Shown here: positions 3,160 through 28,116 of the stretch, piece by piece
Layout: each line of letters starts with the position of its first letter
Position numbering within the stretch: the stretch's first letter is position 1
Assembly: GCA_046350795.1 (NCBI GenBank)
Contig: JAXLZT010000001.1
Location: 146,468-179,779, forward strand
From: Minisyncoccota bacterium
Lineage (GTDB): Bacteria > Patescibacteriota > Minisyncoccia > Phycocordibacterales > CALRHW01
DNA: 33,312 nt
Direction: 5' to 3'
Position numbers and translations under genes: made by a program
The notes under the pieces: generated by a model
The model's input: the letters and a program-made list of their open reading frames with translations, nothing else
The model's database searches: none
Told to the model about the DNA's origin: nothing

Positions 3160-4650
3160 ATGAAAAAAGCTCCACTACCAGTGGTTTTTAAGTTTGAAAT
3201 ACCAAAAGATGTTTCACGAGTAACAGAAACGCTAGAAAAAGCGGGTTTTGAAGCGTATCTGGTAGGGGGCTGTGTGAGAGATCTGATACTAGGCAGGGAA
3301 CCAAAAGACTGGGACGTCACCACAAACGCTGTACCAGAGGAGATAATCGCCCTTTTTCCAAAAACTTTTTACGAAAATTCATATGGAACAGTCGGTGTAG
3401 TAAATGAAGAAACAGAAAACGAGACACTGAAAGTAATAGAAGTCACTCCATATAGGCTTGAAGCGAGCTATAGTGACAATAGACGACCGGACAGTGTCAC
3501 ATTCAGTAAAAGTATCGAGGACGACTTAAAGCGTCGTGATTTCACGATTAACGCGCTTGCGATAGATTCAAAAGGGGAAGTCGTTGACCTATACGACGGC
3601 ATAAAAGACATTTTATCAAAAACCATTCGCACAGTAGGCAATCCAGAAGAAAGATTTACAGAAGATGGCCTACGCATCATGCGAGCGGTGCGACTTTACG
3701 CTGATCTAGGCTTTGAAATAGAGGCGGGGACGGCAGAAGCTATAAAAAAACTAGCACCAATACTAGAAAAAATTGCAAAAGAACGCATTCGTGATGAGTT
3801 TGTAAGAATCATCATGTCAGATAGACCAGCTTTAGGTATAGAAATGGCTAAAAAGCTGGGTATTTTGAGATATATCGTACCAGAATTAGAGCAGGGTATA
3901 GGTGTCACACAAAACCAAGCCCATGCCTTTGACGTCTGGACTCATTTATTAAAAACCCTACAACACGCTGCGGATAAAAAATGGCCACTTCACATACGAC
4001 TTGCTGCGCTTTTTCACGACATAGGTAAACCAAAAACCAGACGAACAGACGGTAAAAAAGGCGACGTCACTTTTTACGGACACGAAGTCGTCGGCGCTAG
4101 AATGACAGAAAAAATAATGCGTGACCTGAGATTTCCAAATGATTTAAGCGAAAATGTAGTGAAGCTAGTGCGCTGGCATATGTTTTTCTCTGACACAGAG
4201 CAAATCACGCTCTCTGCCGTGCGCCGACTCATTAGCAAAGTAGGCAAGGACAATGTCTGGGATCTCATGAACGTGCGTATCTGCGATCGTATAGGTACAG
4301 GCCGACCAAAAGAAAACCCATACCGTCTGCGAAAATACAAATCAATGGTAGAAGAGGTAATGCGTGATCCTGTCTCTGTAGGAATGCTTGCAATAGATGG
4401 AAAGGGAGTAATGGATACGACCGGTATGCCAGCTGGACCTAAAATCGGGCATATTTTGCATGCACTTTTGGAGGAAGTGCTAGAGGACCCGACACTTAAC
4501 ACTAAAGAATATTTGGGCGAAAAAGCCATAAAACTAGCCACACTTTCTGATAAAGAGCTAGAAGAAATGGGTAAAAAGGGTAAAGAAAAAAGGGAAGAAG
4601 AGGATGAAAAGGGTTTAAAAGAGATACGGGACAAGTATCACGTAGAGTAG
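3160..4650 (+). CDS. cca: CCA-adding tRNA nucleotidyltransferase with C-terminal HD domain
   Basis: GGCVRDLILGREPKDWDV, RRDFTINA and HD motif LFHDIGKP...GHE. Start moved to M45 of the tracked ORF because the upstream part overlaps tRNA-Arg on the opposite strand. Confidence 0.88.
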   Translation: MKKAPLPVVFKFEIPKDVSRVTETLEKAGFEAYLVGGCVRDLILGREPKDWDVTTNAVPEEIIALFPKTFYENSYGTVGVVNEETENETLKVIEVTPYRLEASYSDNRRPDSVTFSKSIEDDLKRRDFTINALAIDSKGEVVDLYDGIKDILSKTIRTVGNPEERFTEDGLRIMRAVRLYADLGFEIEAGTAEAIKKLAPILEKIAKERIRDEFVRIIMSDRPALGIEMAKKLGILRYIVPELEQGIGVTQNQAHAFDVWTHLLKTLQHAADKKWPLHIRLAALFHDIGKPKTRRTDGKKGDVTFYGHEVVGARMTEKIMRDLRFPNDLSENVVKLVRWHMFFSDTEQITLSAVRRLISKVGKDNVWDLMNVRICDRIGTGRPKENPYRLRKYKSMVEEVMRDPVSVGMLAIDGKGVMDTTGMPAGPKIGHILHALLEEVLEDPTLNTKEYLGEKAIKLATLSDKELEEMGKKGKEKREEEDEKGLKEIRDKYHVE

Positions 4651-4672
4651 TTTAAAAAATATTTATTAATAC

Positions 4673-4699
4673 AAAAAAAACCGCGCCCACATTGGACGC
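4673..4699 (-). terminator. Intrinsic terminator of RNA A (minus strand)
   Basis: On the minus strand: GCGUCC-AAUGU-GGGCGC (one G.U pair), then GG and U8. Confidence 0.7.
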
Positions 4700-4911
4700 T
4701 AGCCTCGTGCATGCGTACGTTGTGAAATCGCGGTTGTGAAAGAGTCCGCTCAGTAATCGGATGATCGTGGTCAATATCCCAATGTGGAGGTGTGGATATA
4801 TATTCCTTTGCATCATCAAACCCAAACGACCTTTCTGGAGGTGGCCTACCTCGATAATGAACATAGGGGATTTGTCCTTTTAGTGTCTTTTTAGATTCCT
4901 CCCCGGTTCTG
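4673..4911 (-). ncRNA. Unclassified ~240-nt non-coding transcript candidate (RNA A)
   Basis: GC-rich island in AT-rich DNA, bounded by a sigma70-like promoter (4917-4944) and an intrinsic terminator (4673-4699). The only ORF (4652-4864) reads through the terminator U-tract. Confidence 0.55.
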
Positions 4912-4916
4912 GAAAA

Positions 4917-4944
4917 AGTATATCATGCATAAAAGACATTTCAA
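4917..4944 (-). promoter_or_regulatory. Promoter of RNA A
   Basis: On the minus strand: TTGAAA, 16-nt spacer, TGaTATACT (extended -10). Confidence 0.55.
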
Positions 4945-5786: not shown

Positions 5787-5814
5787 TTGACTTTTTATAT
5801 TAAAATGTTATTAT
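5787..5814 (+). promoter_or_regulatory. Promoter of the GC-rich glycine-zipper gene unit
   Basis: TTGACT (5787-5792), 16-nt spacer, TGtTATTAT (-10 at 5809-5814). It lies back-to-back with the xth promoter. Confidence 0.55.
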
Positions 5815-5904
5815 GGCAAATGGAGTGTAGTATACAAAGATAAAGCGGGTAGTGGCTTCCAAAGGAAAGCCCGGTGTCCCGAAACACACACCGAAACCAA
5901 GACC

Positions 5905-6375
5905 ATGGATACAAAATCAGTGATGACAGCGTCATCAGAGTCGTCCTATTCCATCTCAAAGAGATCGATCTGGTCTCTGTTGGGAGTGCTGGCTCTTTCC
6001 GGCTTCATCTACCTTCAAGCTGTGGGGTACATCATCCCAAGCATGAAGGAGTTCGATCATCTCACAAAGGAGAACGCTGACATCAGCAAGATTGGCCTGA
6101 TGTGGGTACCAATCATCAGTTACGTGCTGGTGTCGCTGTGGGTGTGTCTGACAGTCAACATCTTCAGGAAACTGATGACTCGGAAACAGGGTGGTCTCAT
6201 CGATGATCTCATCGAGGGTCTCGTCGTGGGTGTCATCGTGGGTCTTCTAGTCGGGGTTCCAGTCGGGAGTCTCGTCTGGGGTCTCGTCGTGGGTCCCATT
6301 CTGGTTCTCACCAGTAGTCTCAGTGCGGGTCTCGTCTTGGGTCTCTTCAGGGGTCTCAGTAAAGAGTTTTCGTGA
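5905..6375 (+). CDS. Small polytopic membrane protein with glycine-zipper (GxxxG x6) C-terminal half
   Basis: 156 aa with two hydrophobic helices, then GLVVGVIVGLLVGVPVGSLVWGLVVG. Clearly GC-richer than neighbouring genes. Two other frames are also open here, so the coding call rests on the TM-like periodicity. Confidence 0.6.
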   Translation: MDTKSVMTASSESSYSISKRSIWSLLGVLALSGFIYLQAVGYIIPSMKEFDHLTKENADISKIGLMWVPIISYVLVSLWVCLTVNIFRKLMTRKQGGLIDDLIEGLVVGVIVGLLVGVPVGSLVWGLVVGPILVLTSSLSAGLVLGLFRGLSKEFS

Positions 6376-6392
6376 GACAGTCGGTCGCGGTC

Positions 6393-6430
6393 GCGCCGCT
6401 CCATCTTCTGGGGCGGCGCTTTCTTATTTA
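6393..6430 (+). terminator. Intrinsic terminator after the glycine-zipper gene
   Basis: gcgccgc / gcggcgc 7-bp GC stem (6393-6399 and 6413-6419) followed by tttcttattt. Confidence 0.65.
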
Positions 6431-6451
6431 AAAAATTGTGTGTGATTAATT

Positions 6452-7393
6452 TTATTTCCCGCCCTTATTGTGAAACTTTTTATGCACCTCGCGGAGCTGT
6501 TTGTCAGTAATATGAGTATAAATCTGTGTCGTGCCTATATTGGCATGACCCAAAAGCATCTGCACAGATCGCAAATCTGCACCATTTTGTAGCAAATCTG
6601 TAGCAAAACTGTGACGAATAACGTGCGGAGTAACTTTTTTTGTAATACCAGCTTTTATCGCATACTGTTTTACTAGTCTCTCTACAGAACGGGGAGTAAT
6701 AGCCAACTTTTCTGCGTTTTTAGAATTTTTTCCAAACTGAACAAACATAGCATCGTCCATATCCTTACGTTTTGCCAAGTATTTTTTTAAAGCACCCCTT
6801 GCTGAATCCGATAAAAACACCACACGCACCTTTTCTCCTTTTCCTCTTATAGAAAACTCATCTGAATTTAAATCAAGATCACGCGTAAGAGAACAGAGCT
6901 CGGACACACGCAGACCAGTAGAGAAAAGTAGCTCAAGAATAGCCCTATCACGCAAAGATTGCACATCGTCTCCGGACGGAGCGTTCATCAATCTATCTAG
7001 CTCTGCACGAGAGATGAGATCTATAGATCGCTCAGCTACTTTTGCTAGCTCTATTTGATCTGGATGCAGGGAAGACACACGTCGTCGCGCCAGATACTTG
7101 AGAAAAGAGCGTAGGGCAATGAGGTAGTAGTTTTGTGTACGCTTTTTGAGACTTTCGGATGCACCCTGTAGGCCGGGCTGTTTTTTGCCGGATTTTTGTC
7201 GGTTGAGCCAAAGGCGATACTCACGCAAGAGGGTATCCGTGATCTGATCTGGCCGCTTTACCTTTGAAAACTCAAAAAAACGCTCTAAATAATGGTCATA
7301 GTTGGCAACGGTCTTTAGGCTACGACCTTTTTCAATCTCTAAATATTCCAGAAACTCGCGTTTTAATTGTGAAATAGGTGAATTTGTAGACAT
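6452..7393 (-). CDS. Tyrosine recombinase, XerC/XerD-like
   Basis: 313 aa with an N-terminal SAM-like core-binding domain. Catalytic set present: R (GLRVSEL), K (GKGEKVR), HVIRH, LLGH, IYTH. Confidence 0.9.
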   Translation of the reverse strand: MSTNSPISQLKREFLEYLEIEKGRSLKTVANYDHYLERFFEFSKVKRPDQITDTLLREYRLWLNRQKSGKKQPGLQGASESLKKRTQNYYLIALRSFLKYLARRRVSSLHPDQIELAKVAERSIDLISRAELDRLMNAPSGDDVQSLRDRAILELLFSTGLRVSELCSLTRDLDLNSDEFSIRGKGEKVRVVFLSDSARGALKKYLAKRKDMDDAMFVQFGKNSKNAEKLAITPRSVERLVKQYAIKAGITKKVTPHVIRHSFATDLLQNGADLRSVQMLLGHANIGTTQIYTHITDKQLREVHKKFHNKGGK

Positions 7394-7457
7394 TTTTGGG
7401 GAAAATATTTTGCGACGTTATCCTTTTTATAATATCACAACAGATGGGAGATTAAAC

Positions 7458-7488
7458 AAATCACTTGACAAAAAATGTGGGTGTGCTA
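7458..7488 (+). repeat. 31-nt direct repeat, copy 1 (promoter cassette)
   Basis: AAATCACTTGACAAAAAATGTGGGTGTGCTA, identical to 7881-7911. Confidence 0.95.
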
Positions 7489-7492
7489 CAAT
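7465..7492 (+). promoter_or_regulatory. Promoter of RNA C
   Basis: TTGACA (7465-7470), 16-nt spacer, TGcTACAAT (-10 at 7487-7492). Confidence 0.7.
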
Positions 7493-7498
7493 TCTATT

Positions 7499-7864
7499 TA
7501 GCAAGTTCCAGATATAGCACATCCAAGCGAAAGCTTGAGGCCACATCCATCCTGAACAATAATGGGATAGCTGGCTTTGGATAATTCCACAGGGAATTGA
7601 GTGTGCTGTATCGAGTCAATGGCATAGGCACAAGCGACCAAGCCCACCTAGGGGGCAAAGAAGTTGTGTGCCAGAGTCAAATACTCAGGTGCTTGCGGTC
7701 GCTGAAATGCGACCCTAGGGTTCTCAAAAATTGAGCCTCTAGAAAAAGAGTACCGTGCAGTAAAAAGATGATCGGGACGGCCTTCGTCCAAGGTGATGCC
7801 ACCCCACCTTTTAGGGTCGGCACAGGAATGAGAAGCTGCGTCCAACGGCTTCTCTTTTTCTTTT
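7499..7864 (+). ncRNA. Unclassified ~365-nt structured non-coding transcript candidate (RNA C)
   Basis: Consensus promoter and terminator. GC-rich with many local helices, e.g. CAAGC-GAAA-GCTTG (7524-7537) and GGTCGC-TGAAAT-GCGACC (7697-7714). No ORF respects the unit boundaries. Confidence 0.6.
7830..7864 (+). terminator. Intrinsic terminator of RNA C
   Basis: gagaagc / gcttctc stem (7830-7836 and 7848-7854) followed by tttttctttt. Confidence 0.75.
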
Positions 7865-7880
7865 ATATAAACAACCCACT

Positions 7881-7911
7881 AAATCACTTGACAAAAAATG
7901 TGGGTGTGCTA
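7881..7911 (+). repeat. 31-nt direct repeat, copy 2 (promoter cassette)
   Basis: Identical to 7458-7488; the two copies are 423 bp apart in the same orientation. Confidence 0.95.
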
Positions 7912-7915
7912 TACT
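7888..7915 (+). promoter_or_regulatory. Promoter of RNA D
   Basis: TTGACA (7888-7893), 16-nt spacer, TGcTATACT (-10 at 7910-7915). Confidence 0.7.
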
Positions 7916-7921
7916 CTTATA

Positions 7922-8152
7922 CGGATCGGTATACGGTATCCTTCTCTCCTGGCCCAGTATTGGGCCAGCAAGTGAGTAAAAGTAGAGAGAAGGAGAAGGA
8001 TCCTACCAGTACCAACGGACGGAGCCTTGAGCGCAGGCACTGAAGTCCGTGGGTGCAAAAGGACCCAAGAGATTGGAAGTTGGCCGTATGCTCATCAGGG
8101 CCACACCAACCTCGACCCCCCTCTGTCGTGACGACGACACGAGGGGGTTTTT
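7922..8152 (+). ncRNA. Unclassified ~230-nt structured non-coding transcript candidate (RNA D)
   Basis: Consensus promoter and strong terminator. Perfect hairpin CTGGCCCA-GTAT-TGGGCCAG (7949-7968) nested inside pairing of GGTATCCTTCTC with GAGAAGGATCCTACC; ACGGAC/GTCCGT helix near 8012-8050. Confidence 0.6.
8116..8152 (+). terminator. Intrinsic terminator of RNA D
   Basis: CCCCCTC...GAGGGGG outer stem extended by GTCGT/ACGAC, followed by TTTTT. Confidence 0.8.
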
Positions 8153-8181
8153 CATATAAAAATACTAATCTCCCTAAATCC

Positions 8182-8210
8182 TTGCAAAAATAGACTATTT
8201 ATGATAATTT
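8182..8210 (+). promoter_or_regulatory. rpsO promoter
   Basis: TTGCAA (8182-8187), 17-nt spacer, TGaTAATTT (-10 at 8205-8210). The ATG lies 9 nt after the -10, so there is almost no leader. Confidence 0.5.
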
Positions 8211-8219
8211 AGACCCACA

Positions 8220-8492
8220 ATGCTTTCAAAAACAAAGAAACAAAAAATCATAGCGGAAACAAAAATCCACGATGTAGACACTGGTTCTCCAGAGGTTCAG
8301 ATCGCGCTTTTGTCTAAGAGAATAGAGGATTTGGCTGCTCACCTTAAAAAGAACACAAAAGATACTCATTCTCGACGTGGACTTCTACAAATGGTGGCTG
8401 ACAGACAAACTCAAATGAAGTATCTTCAGAAAAAGAGCACAAAAAGATTCAACGCTCTAATGAAGAAGCTTGAAATGAAGAAAAAGGCTTAA
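8220..8492 (+). CDS. rpsO: 30S ribosomal protein S15
   Basis: 90 aa with DTGSPEVQIALLSKRIEDLAAHLKKNTKDTHSRRGLLQMVADRQ. Confidence 0.95.
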   Translation: MLSKTKKQKIIAETKIHDVDTGSPEVQIALLSKRIEDLAAHLKKNTKDTHSRRGLLQMVADRQTQMKYLQKKSTKRFNALMKKLEMKKKA

Positions 8493-8500
8493 GTTTTTGA

Positions 8501-8530
8501 AAAAGCGACCAAAATGGTTGCTTTTTCGTT
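8501..8530 (+). terminator. rpsO terminator
   Basis: aaaagcgacc-aaaat-ggttgctttt stem (one G.U pair) followed by a T-run. Confidence 0.65.
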
Positions 8531-8607
8531 CTTTGAAATCATTATTTGAAATCATTTTTATAAACGCGCGGTTTTATTTTAATAAGAGTTTTTAATTTTT
8601 AATATTC

Positions 8608-9192
8608 ATGACAGTAATCAAACACAAAAACCAAAGAGTTGGTATTTTTATAGACACACAAAATCTATATCACAGTGCAAAAAATTTATACAAATCTAGA
8701 GTAAATTTTGGACAAGTAGTAAAAGATGCTCTTGCGGGACGACAGCTCATACGCGCAGTCGCATACGTCATCACCACAGAAAGTGGGGAAGAGAAGGGTT
8801 TCTTTGAAGCGCTTGAAAAAGTTGGCATAGAAACAAAAACAAAAAATCTGCAAATATTTTCTGGCGGAGCAAAAAAAGCTGACTGGGATGTGGGCCTAGC
8901 GGTAGACGCTATCCAACTCGCACCAAAGCTAGACACTGTAATAATAGTTTCAGGTGACGGAGATTTTATTCCACTACTAGAATACTTGAGAATCAATGAA
9001 GGATGCCAAGTTGAGGTTGTTGCTTTTGGAAAATCATCATCATCAAAACTCATAGAGGTTGCGGATGATTTCATTGACCTAGACGAAAATCCGAGAAAAT
9101 ATTTAATGAACTTTGGACGACCAACAAACAAAAATTCTCAAAACAGAAATACGTCTCTAAGCGAAGCAATAAGTGAACATCTAGAGGAGTAG
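8608..9192 (+). CDS. NYN-domain (LabA/DUF88-like, PIN-fold) protein
   Basis: VGIFIDTQNLY...AVAYV...ADWDVGLAVDA...IVSGDGDFIPLLEYL...VEVVAF. Confidence 0.85.
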   Translation: MTVIKHKNQRVGIFIDTQNLYHSAKNLYKSRVNFGQVVKDALAGRQLIRAVAYVITTESGEEKGFFEALEKVGIETKTKNLQIFSGGAKKADWDVGLAVDAIQLAPKLDTVIIVSGDGDFIPLLEYLRINEGCQVEVVAFGKSSSSKLIEVADDFIDLDENPRKYLMNFGRPTNKNSQNRNTSLSEAISEHLEE

Positions 9193-9228
9193 GAGCGTAA
9201 TATAATTTCCGTTATAATTACGTAGAAT

Positions 9229-10164
9229 ATGGAACCAGAAAAACCTACCCCAAACAAAGAAGAAGTGGGTGCGATACTCAAACCACTGCGCACATACGAG
9301 CGAGATATCGCAGATATGATTCGTGCGCACCAAACCTCTGAGGTTGCTGTAAATTTGGCAAAACAAAAAAAGGAAGAGCAGAAACCAGAAATAAAAATAG
9401 CGGAAGAAAAAAAGAAGTTTGTTTTATCTACACCAAAAGATCGCGTAAATCACAACAAGCTCTACACAAGACTCAGTATTTTATTTATTTTTGTCGGCAT
9501 AACAATGCTAGTCGCAATTTATTTTATAAAATCATCCGAGCCAAAAATAAAAATACCAGAACCGGTCATTAATACTTTTATACCAAACAAAGAAGAGCGT
9601 GTACTGGCATTAGAAAAAATTTCTCAAACACAGATTGCGGAAAATTTTTCTGCGCTTTTAAAAGAAGCTTTACCTGATGACTCCATCACTTATATAAAAA
9701 TAACAATGAAAGGAGCAAGCTCTACAATCGATGCTGACCCAGAAACTTTTTTCAAAAGTGGATTCAAAAATATTCCTGCGTCACTGACACGATCTTTTGA
9801 TAAAAAAATGTTTTCTGGAATATATACAAGAGAAATAAACCATCCATTTTTTATCGTGCAGATAGATTCTTTTGATAAAGCATTTGAAGGAATGCTGGCT
9901 TGGGAAAAAAATATGTATACAGACATAAAACCTTTTTGGAAAGGAAACTCTACAAACAATGAGTCTGAAATAATCACCCAACCACTTGAAAACTTTGACG
10001 ACCTTATATTACAAAATAAAGATACTCGGGTGCTAAAAAATAATCAGGGAGAAACTTTGATCATATATTCTTTCATTGATCAAAAAACTCTTTTTATAGT
10101 AGACAGTGAAATCACTTTTAAAGAGGTTCTGAATAGATTTACCACATCAAAGTTTATACGTTAG
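9229..10164 (+). CDS. Hypothetical single-pass membrane protein
   Basis: 311 aa with an N-terminal LRTYERDIADMI motif, a Lys/Glu-rich linker, one TM (LSILFIFVGITMLVAIYFI) and an extracytoplasmic domain with no family I recognise. Confidence 0.75.
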   Translation: MEPEKPTPNKEEVGAILKPLRTYERDIADMIRAHQTSEVAVNLAKQKKEEQKPEIKIAEEKKKFVLSTPKDRVNHNKLYTRLSILFIFVGITMLVAIYFIKSSEPKIKIPEPVINTFIPNKEERVLALEKISQTQIAENFSALLKEALPDDSITYIKITMKGASSTIDADPETFFKSGFKNIPASLTRSFDKKMFSGIYTREINHPFFIVQIDSFDKAFEGMLAWEKNMYTDIKPFWKGNSTNNESEIITQPLENFDDLILQNKDTRVLKNNQGETLIIYSFIDQKTLFIVDSEITFKEVLNRFTTSKFIR

Positions 10165-22723: not shown

Positions 22724-23152
22724 ATGAGATTCCAAGTACCACAATTTACAGATGTAGAAGACAAGATCTTTGGACCACTTTCCTTTAGGCAGTTTGTCTA
22801 TTTGGCTGGAGGCGCAGGAGCCTGCGCTATTATTTACTACCTAGTACCATTTAGTGTTGTTGCCTTTATGATTATGGTGCCGGTAGCAATATTTGCTGTG
22901 GCACTTGCTTTTTACAAAGTAAACAACAAACCATTCATAAACGTGGTAGAGGCTTTTTTCAAGTACTCAATCACAAGCAAACTCTACATTTGGAAACATG
23001 AGCCGAAAAAGGTGACGATGGCATCCACACCAAAAGAGCTTTCTCGTAGCTTTTTACCAAAGCTTTCTAGTAGCAAACTAAAAGATATGACCTGGAATCT
23101 AGACATCACAGAAAGCATAAATCCTGTCACAAAAAGCGATACAAATAATTAG
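22724..23152 (+). CDS. PrgI-family (VirB3-like) T4SS membrane protein
   Basis: The N-terminus QVPQFTDVEDKIFGPLSFRQFVYL followed by two TM helices is the PrgI-family hallmark. Lies immediately upstream of the VirB4 genes. Confidence 0.75.
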   Translation: MRFQVPQFTDVEDKIFGPLSFRQFVYLAGGAGACAIIYYLVPFSVVAFMIMVPVAIFAVALAFYKVNNKPFINVVEAFFKYSITSKLYIWKHEPKKVTMASTPKELSRSFLPKLSSSKLKDMTWNLDITESINPVTKSDTNN

Positions 23153-23176
23153 AGAAATAGGATATAATTCTTTTAT

Positions 23177-23824
23177 ATGGCAACAAAAGCAAGAGCCTCC
23201 CAAGAATTTGTTCCTATAAGCGACATAAGAGATGGCGTTGTCACACTCAAAGACGGCTCTCTTCGTGCTATCCTCATGGCTTCATCTCTCAATTTTTCTC
23301 TAAAATCAGATGATGAACGTGCAGCAATACTTTATCAGTTTCAAGATTTTCTAAACTCTTTAGATTTTTCTGTACAAATATCTATACAATCTAGAAAACT
23401 AGATATACGCCCGTACGTAGCCCTTTTAGAAGAGACTGAAAAAAATCAGGTCAATGATCTGATGAAAATACAAGTGCAGGAGTACATCGGCTTTATCAAA
23501 AATTTTACCGAAAGCCACAACATCATGACAAAACACTTTTTTATCATCGTGCCGTATTCACCAGCGACACTGCAGGGTAAAAGTACAGTAAGTGGTATCA
23601 CTGGTATTTTTGGAAAAAAGAAAAGTGTAGACGATCAAAAAATATCAGAAAAAGAAAAATTTGAAGAGCATCGCACACAACTAGAACAGAGGCTGGCGGT
23701 GGTGGAGCAGGGACTAGTGCGATCTGGAATACGTGTGGCACAACTAGGTACAGAAGAGGTGGTGGAGTTATTTTATAAAATATTTAATCCAGGCGATGCG
23801 GAAAAGCCTATTCAACTTCAATAA
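23177..23824 (+). CDS. Hypothetical protein resembling the N-terminal domain of Gram-positive VirB4/Orf16-type ATPases
   Basis: FVPISDIRDGVVTLKDGSLRAILMASSLNFSLKSDDERAAILYQFQDFLNSLDFSVQISIQS follows the pattern I recall from N-termini of conjugative VirB4 homologues. No nucleotide-binding motif. Confidence 0.65.
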   Translation: MATKARASQEFVPISDIRDGVVTLKDGSLRAILMASSLNFSLKSDDERAAILYQFQDFLNSLDFSVQISIQSRKLDIRPYVALLEETEKNQVNDLMKIQVQEYIGFIKNFTESHNIMTKHFFIIVPYSPATLQGKSTVSGITGIFGKKKSVDDQKISEKEKFEEHRTQLEQRLAVVEQGLVRSGIRVAQLGTEEVVELFYKIFNPGDAEKPIQLQ

Positions 23825-23829
23825 AAAAT

Positions 23830-25644
23830 ATGAGCTTTTTTAGTAAATTATTTGGTAGCACAAAAAAAGAGGAAATCAATATTGGCATGCTTCCTCAAGA
23901 AATATACAAAGCGGAGGCTTTGGAGCTAAAAGATATTATCGCACCAAGCGCGCTTAAAATAGGTCCGCGAGAACTCAATCTGGGAGACAAAATAGTGCGT
24001 ACTTTTTTTGTCATTTCTTATCCGCGATTTCTCGGTGAGAGTTGGTTTGCTCCGATCATCAACCTAGATAAGGTTTTTGATGTTTCTATATTTGTCCACC
24101 CAATAGATACAGTAAAGGTGTTGCGCCAATTTCAAAAAAAAGTAGCTGAGGTACAAAGCCAGATACACGAGAGAGAAGAAAAGGGGATGGTGCGTGACCC
24201 AATGCTAGACACAGCTTATCAAGACCTAGAAAATCTCCGTGACAACCTACAGCAGGCACAAGAAAAACTTTTTGACGTGGGCCTATATCTCTCTGTCTAT
24301 GGAGAAAATGAAAATGAACTTGATAAAATAGAATCTGAAATAAAATCTATCTTGGAATCAAAGCTTGTATATGTAAAACCTGCACTTTTCCAACAAGAAC
24401 AGGGATACAAAAGCGTGCTTCCTATCGGCACCGACTTACTAGAAGTACATTCAAAGCTAAATTCCTCTCCACTTTCAAGTCTTTTCCCATTTATTTCTTT
24501 TGACCTCACATCAGACAAGGGAATTCTCTATGGTATCAACCGTCACAATGCCAGCCTCGTACTATTTGACCGCTTTTCACTAGAAAATTACAACTCTATT
24601 ACCTTTGCAAAGTCAGGATCTGGAAAATCATACGCTACAAAGCTAGAGATTTTGCGTACGCTGATGTTTGATACAGAAGTGATAGTGATAGACCCAGAGC
24701 GAGAATATGAATACATGGCTGAGGCGGTGGGTGGCAGGTATTTCAAAATATCACTCAACTCTGAGCACCATATCAATCCATTTGATCTACCTCTACCAGG
24801 AGAAGATGAGTCAGCGGCGAGCGTGTTGCGTAGTACGATTATCAATCTAGTGGGTCTTTTCCGACTGATGCTTGGCGGTCTGACCGCAGAAGAGGACGCT
24901 ATCATGGATCGTGCAATCACAGAGACATACGCACTCAAAGACATCACGGCAGAATCTGATTTTACAAACGTAGATCCACCACTTATGTCAGACTTTGAGC
25001 TGGTGCTCAGTGGTATGGAGGGGGGAGAGTCTTTGGCTCAGCGTCTTTCAAAATATACAAAAGGTACTTGGGCTGGATTTATAAATAGACCAACAAACAT
25101 AGATATAAATAAAAAGTTTATCGTATTCTCTTTGCGTGACATGGAAGACGAGCTTAAGCCTATCGCTATGTATATAGTCATGCACTATATATGGAGTGCT
25201 ATTAGAAAAGAGCTGAAGAAAAGACTTCTTGTGATTGACGAGGCGTGGTGGATGATGAAATCAGAAGACACAGCGTCTTTCCTTCTCAGTCTGGCAAAAC
25301 GTGGACGAAAATATTATTTAGGTCTAGCTACCATCACACAGGACGTGGATGATTTCCTCAAATCTCCATACGGTATGCCTATTATTACCAATTCATCTAT
25401 ACAGGTTTTGCTAAAACAATCCCCAACATCTATCGACAAGCTTCAGCAGACTTTCAATCTCACAGATGAAGAAAAATATTTGCTACTAGAATCATCGGTA
25501 GGAGAGGGAATATTTTTTGCTGGCCTAAAACACGTAGCAATAAAAATAATCGCATCATACACAGAAGACCAGATCATCACCTCAGATCCATCTCAAGTCC
25601 TCTCTATTCAAAAAGCAAAGCGCGATCTAGAAAATTCGCAATAA
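23830..25644 (+). CDS. VirB4/TrbE/PrgJ-family T4SS ATPase
   Basis: Walker A AKSGSGKSY, Walker B LLVIDEAWWMM, and ATITQDVDDF with a downstream motif; VRTFFVISYPRFL in the N-terminal domain. Confidence 0.9.
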   Translation: MSFFSKLFGSTKKEEINIGMLPQEIYKAEALELKDIIAPSALKIGPRELNLGDKIVRTFFVISYPRFLGESWFAPIINLDKVFDVSIFVHPIDTVKVLRQFQKKVAEVQSQIHEREEKGMVRDPMLDTAYQDLENLRDNLQQAQEKLFDVGLYLSVYGENENELDKIESEIKSILESKLVYVKPALFQQEQGYKSVLPIGTDLLEVHSKLNSSPLSSLFPFISFDLTSDKGILYGINRHNASLVLFDRFSLENYNSITFAKSGSGKSYATKLEILRTLMFDTEVIVIDPEREYEYMAEAVGGRYFKISLNSEHHINPFDLPLPGEDESAASVLRSTIINLVGLFRLMLGGLTAEEDAIMDRAITETYALKDITAESDFTNVDPPLMSDFELVLSGMEGGESLAQRLSKYTKGTWAGFINRPTNIDINKKFIVFSLRDMEDELKPIAMYIVMHYIWSAIRKELKKRLLVIDEAWWMMKSEDTASFLLSLAKRGRKYYLGLATITQDVDDFLKSPYGMPIITNSSIQVLLKQSPTSIDKLQQTFNLTDEEKYLLLESSVGEGIFFAGLKHVAIKIIASYTEDQIITSDPSQVLSIQKAKRDLENSQ

Positions 25645-25648
25645 AAAT

Positions 25649-26221
25649 ATGCCAAAAATCTCAATGTTCATGGCTGTACTGTTGGTGACCGTCGCAATTT
25701 TGGTTGACGTCACACAGTCTCTCACGGATCTACTACACTTTATTCCTGTTATTGGAAATGCTTTAGCTGTCATAGTGAGCTGGTTATTAGACATAGCATC
25801 TATATTTTCTTTTTATATCTGGCTCAAATTACTAAATGTGAGTTTTGTAGATCCAAAAAGAGCAATTCGGTTTTTTGGCTTTGCTGGTTGTGAATGGTTA
25901 CCTGTAGTAGACGTACTTCCACTTTGGACAACAGGAATAGCACTCACCATAGCAAGTGTGTGGGCAGAAGAGAGAATACAAACAATGACTGGAGTAAACA
26001 TAGCTATAAATGCACGCCTTGCTGCAGGATCTAAAAAAATCCCCGGTGGTGGATTTGGACCAAACGCAATCAGAACCCCTGGGGGAGGTATGGGTGATAT
26101 TTCTAAATCAATGAAAGATTATGCGGCGTTTAAAAAGAGGAGACATGACATGGGTAGGTCGGTGATGGGTGGAGGAGATATATTATTAGGTAACGGTTCA
26201 GAGGAGGATGCATCGGATTAA
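25649..26221 (+). CDS. Polytopic membrane protein, hypothetical
   Basis: 190 aa with about 4 TM segments and a Gly-rich C-terminal tail. Confidence 0.7.
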   Translation: MPKISMFMAVLLVTVAILVDVTQSLTDLLHFIPVIGNALAVIVSWLLDIASIFSFYIWLKLLNVSFVDPKRAIRFFGFAGCEWLPVVDVLPLWTTGIALTIASVWAEERIQTMTGVNIAINARLAAGSKKIPGGGFGPNAIRTPGGGMGDISKSMKDYAAFKKRRHDMGRSVMGGGDILLGNGSEEDASD

Positions 26222-26229
26222 AGATGTGA

Positions 26230-26257
26230 TTGAATAAAACACCCACCGTGCTAAAAT
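26230..26257 (+). promoter_or_regulatory. Internal promoter in the T4SS-like locus (leaderless arrangement)
   Basis: TTGAAT (26230-26235), 16-nt spacer, TGcTAAAAT (-10 at 26252-26257). The ATG at 26264 lies 6 nt downstream. Confidence 0.5.
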
Positions 26258-26263
26258 TATAGA

Positions 26264-27265
26264 ATGAAAAGAATTTTTTCTACTACACTTTTTATAATAT
26301 TTTTTGGTCTAACTAACATTGCTTATGCACAGACCATACCAGCACAAGACAACTTACAATTCATAGTCACACCAGAATACCCAGGACCAAAAGAAGTAGT
26401 AAACATACAAATAGAAGATTACACACAAAATCTAAATTCACTAGAAATATCCTGGTTTTTGGATGGAAAACTTCAAAAAAAGGGTGTAGGGGATAGAAAA
26501 TTTCAGTTTACAACAGGTGATCTTGGTAGTGTTTCAAAAATAAGTGTATCGTCATCTGCTTTTTCAAAAGAAATGAATATACGGCCGACAGGGCTTGATA
26601 TTGTGTGGCAAACAAAAAGCTATACACCGCCATTTTATAAAGGAAAAGCGCTTTATACATACCAAAGTCTGGTTGATTTTGTGGCAATGCCATCTTTTAT
26701 GACGTCTTCTGGTGCAATGATAGATCCAAAAACCCTTGTATATAAATGGACTCGCAATGGATCTGTGCTGGGGGATAGCTCTGGATATGGTAAGAATGTT
26801 TTTTCTACTAGCGGTGGCGTACTAGCAAAGCCATTACAGGTAGAAGTAGAAGCTTCTACTATAGATGGAAGTATGCGAGCAAAAAAAAGTATTGAATTGC
26901 AAGGCGCACAACCAGAGGTATTTTTGTATGAAAACCATCCGTTATACGGAATATTGTATAATAAAGCTATTGGACCACAGTTTGATCTTAAATCAAAAGA
27001 AATATCTCTGTCTTCTGCGCCGTATTTTTTTGATGTAAATAGAAAAGACGATCCAGCTTTAACATACAACTGGAGTATGAACGGAAAAAAATTATCAAAT
27101 CAAAAAAACCCAGACTCGCTTGTATTGAGAAAACCAGATAACACACAATCCGGATCAGCTTTGGTGGGAGTAAACATACAAAAAATTGGCAGAAGTTTAC
27201 AGTTTAGGGATTTTTCTACAAAAATAAGATTTGAAGTGTCAGATGAAAACACACCAACAATATGA
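26264..27265 (+). CDS. Secreted hypothetical protein (beta-rich, Ig-like repeats likely)
   Basis: Signal peptide FGLTNIAYA-Q. 333 aa. The stop overlaps the next start (ATGA). Confidence 0.7.
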   Translation: MKRIFSTTLFIIFFGLTNIAYAQTIPAQDNLQFIVTPEYPGPKEVVNIQIEDYTQNLNSLEISWFLDGKLQKKGVGDRKFQFTTGDLGSVSKISVSSSAFSKEMNIRPTGLDIVWQTKSYTPPFYKGKALYTYQSLVDFVAMPSFMTSSGAMIDPKTLVYKWTRNGSVLGDSSGYGKNVFSTSGGVLAKPLQVEVEASTIDGSMRAKKSIELQGAQPEVFLYENHPLYGILYNKAIGPQFDLKSKEISLSSAPYFFDVNRKDDPALTYNWSMNGKKLSNQKNPDSLVLRKPDNTQSGSALVGVNIQKIGRSLQFRDFSTKIRFEVSDENTPTI

Positions 27266-28116
27266 TGAAAGTATTTAAAAAAACATTAGCGGTTGTATCT
27301 GCATCAATAGTAATCTTTACTATTTTTGCAATATTACCAAACATTGTTGGTGCAGAAAATGTTGAGTATGTTCCGCTTAGCCCGCTTCCTGACGGGAGTG
27401 GTGGGGTGATGAATAACACCAACATCACCACATACCTTATTGGTATTTTTAAGCTTCTTATTGGTGTGGCTGGAGCACTAGCTGTGGTAATGATAGTGGT
27501 AGGGGGCATACAATACATGTCTACTGATGCAATATATGGCAAAAAAGATGGGAAGGAAAAAATAAATCGAGCACTCGGTGGACTACTTTTAGCCCTAACA
27601 TCATGGCTCATACTCAACACCATAAATCCAAAACTTCTAGAAATAAAAGCCCTAATACCAAAAACAAACTTATCACAACAAGCAACGACACCCGTAAACA
27701 CTCAAACATTTAAAGCAAAAATTATTGTAAATCCACTGAGCGGACCAATAGCACAAGAGACTTTTTGTATTGGATCTTATTCGTCACTTGAGTCGTGCAA
27801 CGCTAATCTTGGCGCCACCGTTCAAATGAATTACCCAGTAACTCAGTACGAGATTGTAGGGACTTATTGTACGACTGGTTGTGTAGCAGCCCAAACACTA
27901 AACAGTGGGGAGTGGGTTGTATACATAAGCAAATACGAAAACGGACCAGCAACTCAATTGTGTTTAGGAAACTTTCCAACTCAAGCGGAGTGCAATGCTG
28001 CCAAGCCTGGTATTGTACAAGAACAGGGTGGTACCACACAACAAGGTGGTCCTGTGACTGTAAACAATTGTGTACAAAAATCTATGTGTCCTCCATCAAA
28101 TGGATCAGGGCAATAA
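27262..28116 (+). CDS. VirB2/TrbC-like T4SS pilin (CPR T4SS_pilin type) with a ~150-aa Cys-rich C-terminal extension
   Basis: Signal peptide, then two hydrophobic helices flanking a QYMSTDAIYGKKDGKEKINRA loop (IGIFKLLIGVAGALAVVMIVVGGIQY...LGGLLLALTSWLILNTINP). The extension carries two C-[IL]-G-x-[YF]-x5-E-C-N-A modules. Confidence 0.75.
   Translation: MMKVFKKTLAVVSASIVIFTIFAILPNIVGAENVEYVPLSPLPDGSGGVMNNTNITTYLIGIFKLLIGVAGALAVVMIVVGGIQYMSTDAIYGKKDGKEKINRALGGLLLALTSWLILNTINPKLLEIKALIPKTNLSQQATTPVNTQTFKAKIIVNPLSGPIAQETFCIGSYSSLESCNANLGATVQMNYPVTQYEIVGTYCTTGCVAAQTLNSGEWVVYISKYENGPATQLCLGNFPTQAECNAAKPGIVQEQGGTTQQGGPVTVNNCVQKSMCPPSNGSGQ

Follow-up and report, generated by a model that had tools for sequence, protein, structure and literature searches.

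Two putative structured RNA genes in the xer-rpsO spacer of an uncultured Patescibacteria lineage

Two tandem units occupy the xer-rpsO spacer

We analyzed 33,312 nucleotides (nt) of contig JAXLZT010000001.1 from the Minisyncoccota bacterium assembly GCA_046350795.1 (positions 146,468 to 179,779; this whole stretch is called the window here, and coordinates count from its first base). A gene for an Xer-type tyrosine recombinase (6452-7393, minus strand; 313 amino acids, with Pfam Phage_integrase and SAM-like N-terminal domains) and rpsO, the gene for ribosomal protein S15 (8220-8492, plus strand; Pfam PF00312, E = 1.8e-28; a NYN-domain protein comes next), are separated by an 826-nt spacer, most of which is filled by two tandem units, units 1 and 2. 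We consider it probable that these are two unrelated accessory structured RNA genes of uncultured Paceibacteria (Patescibacteria, or candidate phyla radiation [CPR]).

A 31-nt cassette, AAATCACTTGACAAAAAATGTGGGTGTGCTA, occurs as exactly two plus-strand copies at 7458-7488 and 7881-7911, 423 nt apart, in agreement with an earlier note on this DNA made from the sequence alone, and the repeat can be extended to 40 nt at 90% identity. No further copy with up to three mismatches was found in the window (none is expected, from 100 shuffles). Copy 1 provides a -35 element, TTGACA, at 7465-7470 and an extended -10 element, TGcTACAAT, that ends at 7492; in copy 2 the -35 lies at 7888-7893 and the extended -10, TGcTATACT, ends at 7915. 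Both cassettes match TTGACA-16-TATAAT at 11 of 12 positions and add the TG of an extended -10, they are the best promoter-like sites within 6000-9500, and the pattern TTGACA-N13-15-TGnTAnnnT is found in the 33-kb window at the two cassettes only, so that the note's description of each copy as a TTGACA-N16-TGcTAnAnT promoter holds. From spacing, unit 1 would start near A7500 and unit 2 near 7921-7923.

Unit 1 is predicted to end at an intrinsic terminator at 7830-7864 (plus strand), where a terminator scan found a 9-bp stem (7830-7854) and then a T run, and unit 2 at 8116-8152 (plus strand), where CCCCCCUCUGUCGU-GACG-ACGACACGAGGGGG is followed by UUUUU; the unit 2 hairpin spans 8116-8147, and the terminator scan calls its inner stem, 8126-8142. 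Terminators had been proposed at these places, and other features that the earlier note had pointed out are likewise seen: the units are richer in G+C (0.50 for unit 1 and 0.56 for unit 2) than the window (0.38), they are dense in structure in a dinucleotide-shuffle folding test of the plus strand (z = -4.6 and -5.5, respectively), a GNRA-capped hairpin, CAAGC-GAAA-GCUUG, lies at 7524-7537, and no open reading frame (ORF) respects the unit boundaries, the longest (91 codons, 7768-8043) crossing terminator 1 and promoter 2. Transcription of both units would follow from these sequence signals.

The arrangement of both units recurs in two other metagenome-assembled genome (MAG) assemblies of the same species (L001/L011 and L002), and we reject an assembly artifact as its source. 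We observed that Logan contigs built with k = 31 from at least 7 sequencing runs end exactly inside the 31-nt cassette: those of L003 to L006, L009, and L010 begin 338 nt upstream of rpsO, and that of L128 ends 94 nt upstream of the recombinase gene. Such contigs break here because the exact repeat has the k-mer length, and unit 1 is left on its own short, protein-free contig and is therefore invisible to protein-anchored look-ups, a practical point for anyone searching k = 31 assemblies for this locus.

Pairing is conserved among diverged homologs

Scanning one genome per GTDB species gave 80 Patescibacteria loci, mostly labeled Paceibacteria or Parcubacteria, and homologs of unit 2 were located via contigs anchored on close homologs of the recombinase and S15. 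The predicted unit 2 RNA (7921-8152, plus strand; about 230 nt including the terminator) has homologs in the single-unit carriers L126 (recombinase 92% identical), L124 (93%), and L132 to L134 (S15 87% identical), all of which align with it end to end and lie directly upstream of the rpsO promoter. RNAalifold folds these homologs into a chain of helices, and together with a covariance model (CM) alignment it delimits a conserved core (7934-8114) of three helical elements and invariant unpaired motifs. P1 (7939-7948/7985-7994) contains an inner hairpin (7949-7955/7962-7968) and an A-rich internal loop, P2 (7998-8004/8060-8066) encloses a long irregular hairpin (8009-8056), and P3 (8069-8071/8111-8113 plus 8075-8076/8106-8107) carries a hairpin at 8081-8085/8098-8103. 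The unpaired motifs UCCUACCAG, AAAAGGA, and CAAGAGAU are invariant across the four lineages, and a 12-nt loop, (G/A)UA(U/A)GC(U/C)CA(U/A/C)CAG (GUAUGCUCAUCAG in the window), is nearly so.

In the CM alignment of unit 2, which was fitted to the model so that the paired percentage is inflated, 99.1% of 348 cells are standard pairs and 15 of 49 pairs have changed on both sides; none of 500 shuffles reached the observed values, and sliding the partners by 1 to 3 columns left 36 to 50% pairing and 2 to 5 double-changed pairs. An equivalent terminator of different sequence is present in L124, L126, and L132. A long-range helix between the 5' and 3' ends in the minimum free energy (MFE) fold of unit 2 was discarded, as it is not conserved and its co-varying pair of single-nucleotide polymorphisms (SNPs) turns A-U into G-A. 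The indels in the alignment measure 1, 2, and 4 nt and, not being multiples of 3, leave no conserved reading frame in unit 2; we reject a small-ORF reading on these grounds, and a minus-strand ATG ORF at 8155 is not kept in L124, L126, or L132.

The predicted unit 1 RNA (7500-7864, plus strand; about 360 nt including the terminator) has its homolog in L130 (S15 99% identical), in which the xer-rpsO spacer holds a single unit with the promoter cassette and terminator of unit 1 and no unit 2. Independent MFE folds of the window and L130 sequences have an identical architecture, and with the CM alignment they define domain I (7501-7696), in which a long-range helix, P0 (7501-7509/7688-7696), closes about 190 nt made up of a four-way junction and a long arm. 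H1 (7511-7522/7601-7612) closes the junction of three hairpins, H2 (7524-7528/7533-7537), H3 (7538-7543/7572-7577; its loop keeps AUCCUGAAnAAUAA in both the window and L130), and H4 (7582-7588/7593-7599), and the long arm H5 (7613-7686) lies 3' of the junction, inside P0. Domain II (7698-7829), after which the terminator comes, includes a conserved 3' hairpin (7798-7821) followed by a conserved ACAGGAAUG.

The junction strands ACAUCC, UUUGGAUAAU, and UUGAGUGUG are unchanged between the window and L130, and all 24 comparable pairs of H1 to H4 are standard in both, with 7 changed on both sides. A covariance model made from the window species only recovers L130 at E = 1e-7 and nothing else among 21 loci. 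In the CM alignment of the two sequences, again fitted to the model structure with the same inflating effect on the percentage, 98.3% of cells are paired and 16 of 60 pairs are double-changed, against 0 to 2 in slid controls. By eye, the 7-bp stem of the 3' hairpin (GCCACCC/GGGUCGGC in the window, GGAGACC/GGUCUCC in L130) has four double-changed pairs, and the terminator is kept in L130 with pairing-compatible stem substitutions; this hairpin segment plus the terminator is 78% identical between the two. Four substitutions in the terminator region are, on our reading, all nonsynonymous in the overlapping 91-codon ORF, yet compatible with pairing. We consider the evidence for unit 1 as a structured RNA good but thin. 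The covariation in both units, together with their conservation in relatives, on which the earlier note had staked its proposal, bears out the idea of two tandem noncoding units.

The promoters and T runs of both units point to the plus strand, and for unit 1 the folding score is also stronger on that strand (z = -4.6 against -2.8 on the minus strand). G-U pairs account for 22 of 173 cells in unit 1 and 22 of 342 in unit 2 and, since they would be A-C mismatches on the opposite strand, favor the plus strand as well. These indications bear on a type II hammerhead ribozyme on the minus strand (8082-8155), an alternative that we reject as having next to no chance of being a functional element here. 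A cmscan alignment does include the core elements CUGAUGAG and GAAA, but it scores 14.6 bits against a gathering score of 37, with a chance-level E value of 7, and L124 has the core CUGUUGA, in which the essential A6 is lost; promoters, T runs, and G-U pairs all point away from that strand. The alignment itself is produced by the terminator stem together with CUGAUGAG, which is complementary to the conserved loop of unit 2.

Searches with nhmmer of both units against 90 loci returned the same species only, and covariance models (R1 and R2 for unit 2, R3 for unit 1), also with filters off, found no members beyond L124, L126, L132 to L134, and L130. L136, L016/L017, L014, and L129 were considered as distant relatives of unit 2 and rejected; they share the short motifs GGUAUCC and AAAGGAnnCAAGAG, but the folds differ.

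We also observed that the 3' strand of H1 in unit 1, UGAGUGUGCUGUA (7598-7610; 5' strand, 7513-7525), resembles the extended -10 region of the unit's own promoter, TGGGTGTGCTATA (7476-7488 and 7901-7913), at 11 of 13 positions, so that the 5' strand of H1 is complementary to the promoter -10. In L130 we read a weaker match, at about 8 of 13 positions; the resemblance may be a trace of the origin of unit 1, or chance.

Presence and turnover of the units at a conserved locus

Among close relatives, taken as those with a recombinase at least 91% or S15 at least 87% identical, the spacer varies in content. The window, L001, and L002 have units 1 and 2, L130 has unit 1 only, and L126, L124, and L132 have unit 2 only; L129, probably of the lineage of L012, has a different unit of about 150 nt in a 335-nt spacer, and L135, with the upstream flank of L127, has only a bidirectional terminator hairpin. 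At this locus, unit 1 is thus absent from L124, L126, L129, L132, and L135. The closest GTDB relative, L012 (recombinase 91%), is uninformative, as exactly 100 N (3901-4000) fill the interval between its recombinase start codon and rpsO promoter. In L126, the window's flank upstream of promoter 1 is joined straight to unit 2, which is the product expected of cassette-to-cassette recombination, or might be the state before unit 1. Relative to L126 and L130, which have a single cassette, both cassettes of the window show the same three differences, indicating a recent duplication or homogenization of the promoter.

The units diverge faster than the genes beside them. Between the window and L130, nucleotide identity is 98.5% in rpsO and 92.5% in the xer N terminus, and 59% in the body of unit 1. 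Unit 2 is 81%, 62%, and 72% identical to its homologs in L126, L124, and L132, for which rpsO is 86%, 85%, and 77% identical; the two rank differently, so unit 2 similarity is incongruent with the flank. Within the species, the units differ by 0.8 to 1.9%, flanking genes by 0 to 0.4%, and third codon positions by 0 to 1.1%. The pattern suggests that alleles are replaced by recombination or change very rapidly, while pairing is maintained. Mutagenesis like that of diversity-generating retroelements was considered and rejected, as the strain SNPs are not adenine specific.

Variation of this kind could also be expected of decaying or selfish inserts in a recombination hotspot that have no cellular function and fold as a by-product of their GC content. 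The xer-rpsO spacer is indeed hypervariable, at 43 nt to 3.9 kb (about half of the spacers are shorter than 200 nt), and by inspection the long ones hold small lineage-specific ORFs, larger inserts, or unrelated ORF-free units of promoter, GC-rich body, and terminator; M14 peptidases are among the larger inserts, as is a gene that we take to be Fic-like from an HPFxxGNGR motif. The faster evolution of the units relative to their flanks, and strain SNPs that in some cases break pairs, fit this reading too. However, 15 and 16 pairs are double-changed in the two units, fewer than 2% of cells are unpaired when the slid-partner controls pair 23 to 50%, and the changes in stems leave junction strands, promoters, and terminators intact. 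No homolog turned up in phage or viral collections: a phage BLAST gave no match, an 18-mer of the cassette had 0 matches in the viral collection, and motif-pair scans of viral contigs produced 110 loci, all of them chance matches by nhmmer. In metagenomes, the 18-mer led to no homolog of unit 1 or 2, only to other genes or orphan units behind the promoter form. We regard functionless inserts as improbable.

A second alternative is that unit 2, or both units, act in cis as a leader or attenuator of rpsO, for instance as an S15-binding autoregulatory RNA with a terminator that governs read-through into the gene. S15 autoregulatory RNAs are structurally diverse between phyla, and all genomes with unit 2 have it immediately before rpsO. 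Against this, rpsO has a conserved promoter of its own (8182-8210, plus strand; TTGCAA-N17-TGATAAT), about 10 nt before the start codon, from which spacing predicts a leader of a few nucleotides, and its elements CTTGCAAAAATAG...TATGATAAT/TGCTAT are kept in the relatives' spacers that we read, with or without units, including those of about 110 to 190 nt. The strong terminator of unit 2 stands about 30 nt before this promoter, L130 and L135 lack unit 2 (in L130, unit 1 takes that position), and the tandem G-U/G-C step in the helix 8021-8027/8035-8041 is not kept in L124. A cis-acting role on rpsO thus seems very unlikely.

The earlier note had called the position beside a recombinase gene unusual, a point that does not stand. 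The recombinase is of the Xer type, and most of about 70 loci, from about as many species, retain the order exonuclease-xer-rpsO-NYN regardless of what the spacer contains; this is conserved chromosomal synteny, and the adjacency of the recombinase is therefore incidental to the RNAs. NCBIfam models for XerA, XerD, and XerC score about 241 to 249 bits on the protein, with only the cutoff of NF040815 (XerA type) passed, and the integron integrase models score 124 bits (TIGR02249, cutoff 265) and 80 bits (NF011946, cutoff 435). We rejected an integron, an integrative mobile element exploiting Xer, or a dif site at this locus, given the Xer-type recombinase, no flanking dif-like duplication, and no switch of GC skew.

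Searches for known RNA families

At gathering scores, Rfam 15 (4,227 families) finds four tRNAs in the window and nothing else, and ARAGORN likewise reports four tRNAs and no transfer-messenger RNA (tmRNA). With permissive filters and E ≤ 10, the region 7380-8260 gives five chance-level matches, all of 16 bits or less, among which there is no RNase P RNA, tmRNA, signal recognition particle (SRP) RNA, 6S RNA, OLE, ROOL, GOLLD, raiA, or riboswitch. Four Rfam scans over 36 loci of relatives found nothing in any spacer.

The earlier note had looked for motifs of RNase P, tmRNA, and SRP RNA without success, and it left two options, highly divergent housekeeping RNAs or lineage-specific structured RNAs; the empty searches agree with its motif hunt, and the cmscan that it proposed gives no confident family match, so these are not known housekeeping RNAs. 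The first option, that standard models miss divergent forms of RNase P, tmRNA, SRP, or 6S RNA, is one to which we give very little credence. In its favor, lengths of about 360 and 230 nt would suit such RNAs, genes for stable RNAs typically have strong promoters, and RNase P RNAs below Rfam thresholds are known from CPR genomes, where lowered cutoffs are needed; RF00010 then finds them, and the core is kept (PMC8172020). In the units, by contrast, no match to the four families appears at E ≤ 10 and the best of any family is 16 bits, neither consensus has P4 pseudoknot strands, a tRNA-like end, or a rod with a central bubble, close relatives carry one unit, another unit, or none at the locus, and identity falls to 59% in unit 1, against 98.5% in rpsO, unlike conserved housekeeping cores. 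Patchy presence and fast divergence therefore argue against slowly evolving housekeeping RNAs and leave the lineage-specific option standing, the units being replaced in close relatives.

Each family was also rejected on its own features. For RNase P RNA, RF00010 and RF00011 give no match at E ≤ 10, CR-I (GGAAAGUCC) and CR-IV/V (ACAGAA..GGCUUA) are absent, and the consensus fold of unit 1 is a local four-way junction with no P4 pseudoknot. For tmRNA there is no match to RF00023 and no tRNA-like end. No SRP family matches at E ≤ 10, and the sole GNRA hairpin (7524-7537) is not conserved, its loop being CGCG in L130. For 6S RNA, RF00013 has no match, and unit 2 forms three consecutive local helices and unit 1 a branched domain, neither with a central-bubble rod.

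Proposed nature and mode of action

That the units are genuine, independently transcribed accessory structured RNA genes is, we believe, likely. In sequence and predicted structure, each has the general traits of a stand-alone noncoding RNA (ncRNA) gene, with a promoter and terminator of its own, compensatory substitutions that keep the fold, and no conserved ORF. Each unit would be an autonomous module of a near-consensus sigma-70-type promoter with an extended -10, an RNA body, and an intrinsic terminator, independent of the divergent Xer gene and, given the promoter of rpsO, of that gene as well. Unit 1 would form the P0-closed domain, with a four-way junction of invariant strands and a hypervariable arm, and then a few hairpins, and unit 2 a three-helix chain with invariant unpaired motifs. 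The duplicated or homogenized promoter cassette would probably also serve as a direct repeat for loss of a module.

Several points weigh against this account. The promoters and terminators are consensus matches alone, folding scores do not tell the two strands of unit 2 apart (z = -5.5 on plus, -6.4 on minus), and covariation draws on four lineages for unit 2 and two for unit 1, in which the central ~180 nt are 42% identical and essentially unalignable. Several within-species SNPs break predicted pairs (e.g., 7719, 7799/7800, and 7964), and change faster than at neighboring synonymous sites could mean weak constraint. No partner protein or target was identified, and no feature of the window tracks whether the units are present.

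How the RNAs might act is less certain. We tentatively put protein binding first, with somewhat less than even confidence, in the form of an abundant trans-acting scaffold or decoy: invariant junction and loop nucleotides among variable stems would describe a specific three-dimensional fold that is read by a protein partner. The combination of variable stems with invariant junctions and loops, and no long conserved single-stranded seeds, favors a protein-binding RNA over antisense or cis action. The units contain no repeats.

The units might instead be trans-acting, base-pairing small RNAs (sRNAs), with the loops GUAUGCUCAUCAG or UCCUACCAG pairing with distant mRNAs. A stand-alone layout of promoter and terminator is typical of bacterial sRNA genes, lineage-specific and fast-evolving sRNAs are common, and short invariant unpaired motifs do occur here within otherwise variable RNAs. 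At 230 and 360 nt and with multihelix junctions, however, the units are larger and more elaborate than typical seed-pairing sRNAs, complements of the two longest conserved motifs match the 33-kb window no more often than chance predicts, and no extended complementarity was detected there with blastn-short. We think base pairing unlikely, though not implausible.

More speculatively, and in our view a long shot, the xer-rpsO spacer may be a dedicated exchange site, with promoter and terminator cassettes as portable ends and the RNAs under diversifying selection in a conflict or partner interaction. If so, the conflict could be, for example, phage defense, or the interaction one with a host or an antitoxin-like partner, and unit 1 could be a conserved scaffold (the four-way junction and 3' hairpin) with a hypervariable specificity arm. 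Conserved pairing with fast divergence and module turnover is seen in conflict or accessory systems more typically than in classical regulatory RNAs. CPR genomes are tiny and densely coding, so that an 826-nt spacer carries a real cost and implies a real function, and we know of almost no characterized ncRNAs from this lineage.

Neighboring features and other spacer units

Apart from units 1 and 2, we observed unrelated ORF-free units in the xer-rpsO spacers of L052/L055, L054/L059/L075, L014, L016/L131, L017, L077, L129, and L136, with tandem pairs in L054 and L059; Rfam recognized none of these. In the unit shared by L052 and L055 (81% identity), 3 pairs are compensatory, 8 have one-sided changes that preserve pairing, and none is broken, and the units of L054, L059, and L075 have a common 5' end, ACCAGAUGAACCUUG (GCAGGAUGAUCUUUG in L075).

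The promoter form TTGACAAAAAAT...TGCTAnnnT (CTTGACAAAAAATGTGGG..TGCTAnAnT) also stands in unrelated metagenome contigs, where it precedes what are predicted to be long, terminated, GC-rich, ORF-poor transcripts (L110, 5935-6610; L114, 3838-4400; L118, 4024-4330; L120, 1554-2000; L102, at 9221 and 9796). Rfam had no match in the units of L110, L114, L118, and L120. The L114 unit has a hydrophobic mini-ORF of 14 codons behind a perfect Shine-Dalgarno sequence, and in L102 the promoter and 5' leader form tandem repeats (two exact, the third diverged) before different small ORFs. These occurrences hint at a wider pool of orphan RNAs and, together with the other spacer units, suggest that these symbionts have a large set of ncRNAs still unexplored.

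Near the Xer gene, the motif GTCGCA(A/C)AAT or its complement ATT(G/T)TGCGAC lies about 10 to 50 nt upstream of the start in most of the ~70 species, in either orientation and often beside AATATT (7404-7425 in the window; seen in the first 75 nt upstream of the recombinase start in L011 to L089). It could be an operator, an element of the 5' untranslated region, or half a site for recombination; we recognized neither a full palindrome nor a dif-like 28-mer at the motif. On the other side of the recombinase gene is a variable islet (5787-6419, plus strand) with a promoter-like site (5787-5814), an ORF of 156 codons (5905-6375), and a strong terminator (6393-6419). Its product is very hydrophobic by our reading, likely a membrane protein, and has no Pfam or NCBIfam match. 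L012 to L014 lack the islet, the exonuclease and recombinase genes being adjacent there, and in L011 only a stretch of about 107 amino acids matches the islet ORF at 50% identity.

A minus-strand unit of about 240 nt at 4652-4944 lies in a 330-nt gap between the genes for the CCA-adding enzyme and the exonuclease, with a promoter-like site in the style of the two cassettes, TTGAAA-N14-TGATATACT (4944-4917), and a G+C hairpin plus T run at about 4670-4700. Its 70-codon ORF (4652-4864) would overrun the terminator, and the folding of the unit is unremarkable (z = -1.3); the unit may encode a small protein or a further sRNA. A 311-amino-acid protein with no family match (9229-10164) is identical in L002 and 74% identical between the window and MAG L011, between which the recombinase gene and rpsO are 100% identical in nucleotides, making this a hypervariable gene in a near-clonal, mosaic region. 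A cluster like those for type IV secretion or conjugation (22724-28116) contains PrgI-family, TraG/VirB4-like P-loop ATPase, and type IV secretion pilin-like genes among ORFs with no match.

Relation to known systems

The locus recalls an integron in that a tyrosine recombinase gene stands divergently from a variable array of short modules. It differs from one in that the recombinase is of the Xer type, the modules are noncoding with promoters and terminators of their own, and the gene order is chromosomal and conserved in ~70 species. On reading the sequence we saw no attC-like sites, and the boundary repeats are only the promoter cassette and a 9-bp inverted repeat, the latter at chance level and not kept in L126.

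Unit 1 has several traits in common with CPR RNase P RNAs (Lui et al. 2021, PMC8172020): a CPR host, a length of about 360 nt, a multihelix junction, and no detection at default Rfam settings. The latter RNAs, however, are found by RF00010 at lowered thresholds, whereas unit 1 has no match at E ≤ 10 and is not in every relative's locus. Like 6S RNA and mycobacterial Ms1, known examples of which are 180 to 300 nt long, the units are strongly promoted, structured, and poorly conserved in sequence, and the likeness of an H1 strand to the unit's own extended -10 described above (11/13, and ~8/13 in L130) may be set beside these RNAs; the units differ from them in having no central-bubble rod and no 6S match at E ≤ 10.

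As a model for a structured trans-acting decoy, the protein-sequestering pair CsrB (about 369 nt) and CsrC (about 245 nt) of Escherichia coli comes to mind: these too are two unrelated-looking, multihairpin, fast-evolving stand-alone RNAs with their own promoters and terminators. The repeated GGA motifs in the loops of CsrB and CsrC are not a feature of the units, in which GGA occurs 5 times (unit 1) and 7 times (unit 2), against 7.2 and 5.2 in shuffles, and lies mostly inside stems, the unit 2 copies among them; no CsrA gene was seen in the window.

The orphan ncRNA motifs of Weinberg et al. (2017, PMC5737381), such as raiA and ROOL, share with the units an intergenic position in AT-rich genomes, a GC-rich, ORF-free body, covariation, a promoter and terminator of their own, and no known function. 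The units differ from them in matching no Rfam family, in a distribution that is far narrower (genus level), and in a much faster turnover. Units 1 and 2 would accordingly be two new RNA families of a general kind, the stand-alone structured bacterial ncRNA, that is already known; more unusual are the gain, loss, and replacement of modules at one conserved spacer and a divergence above that of neighboring synonymous sites.

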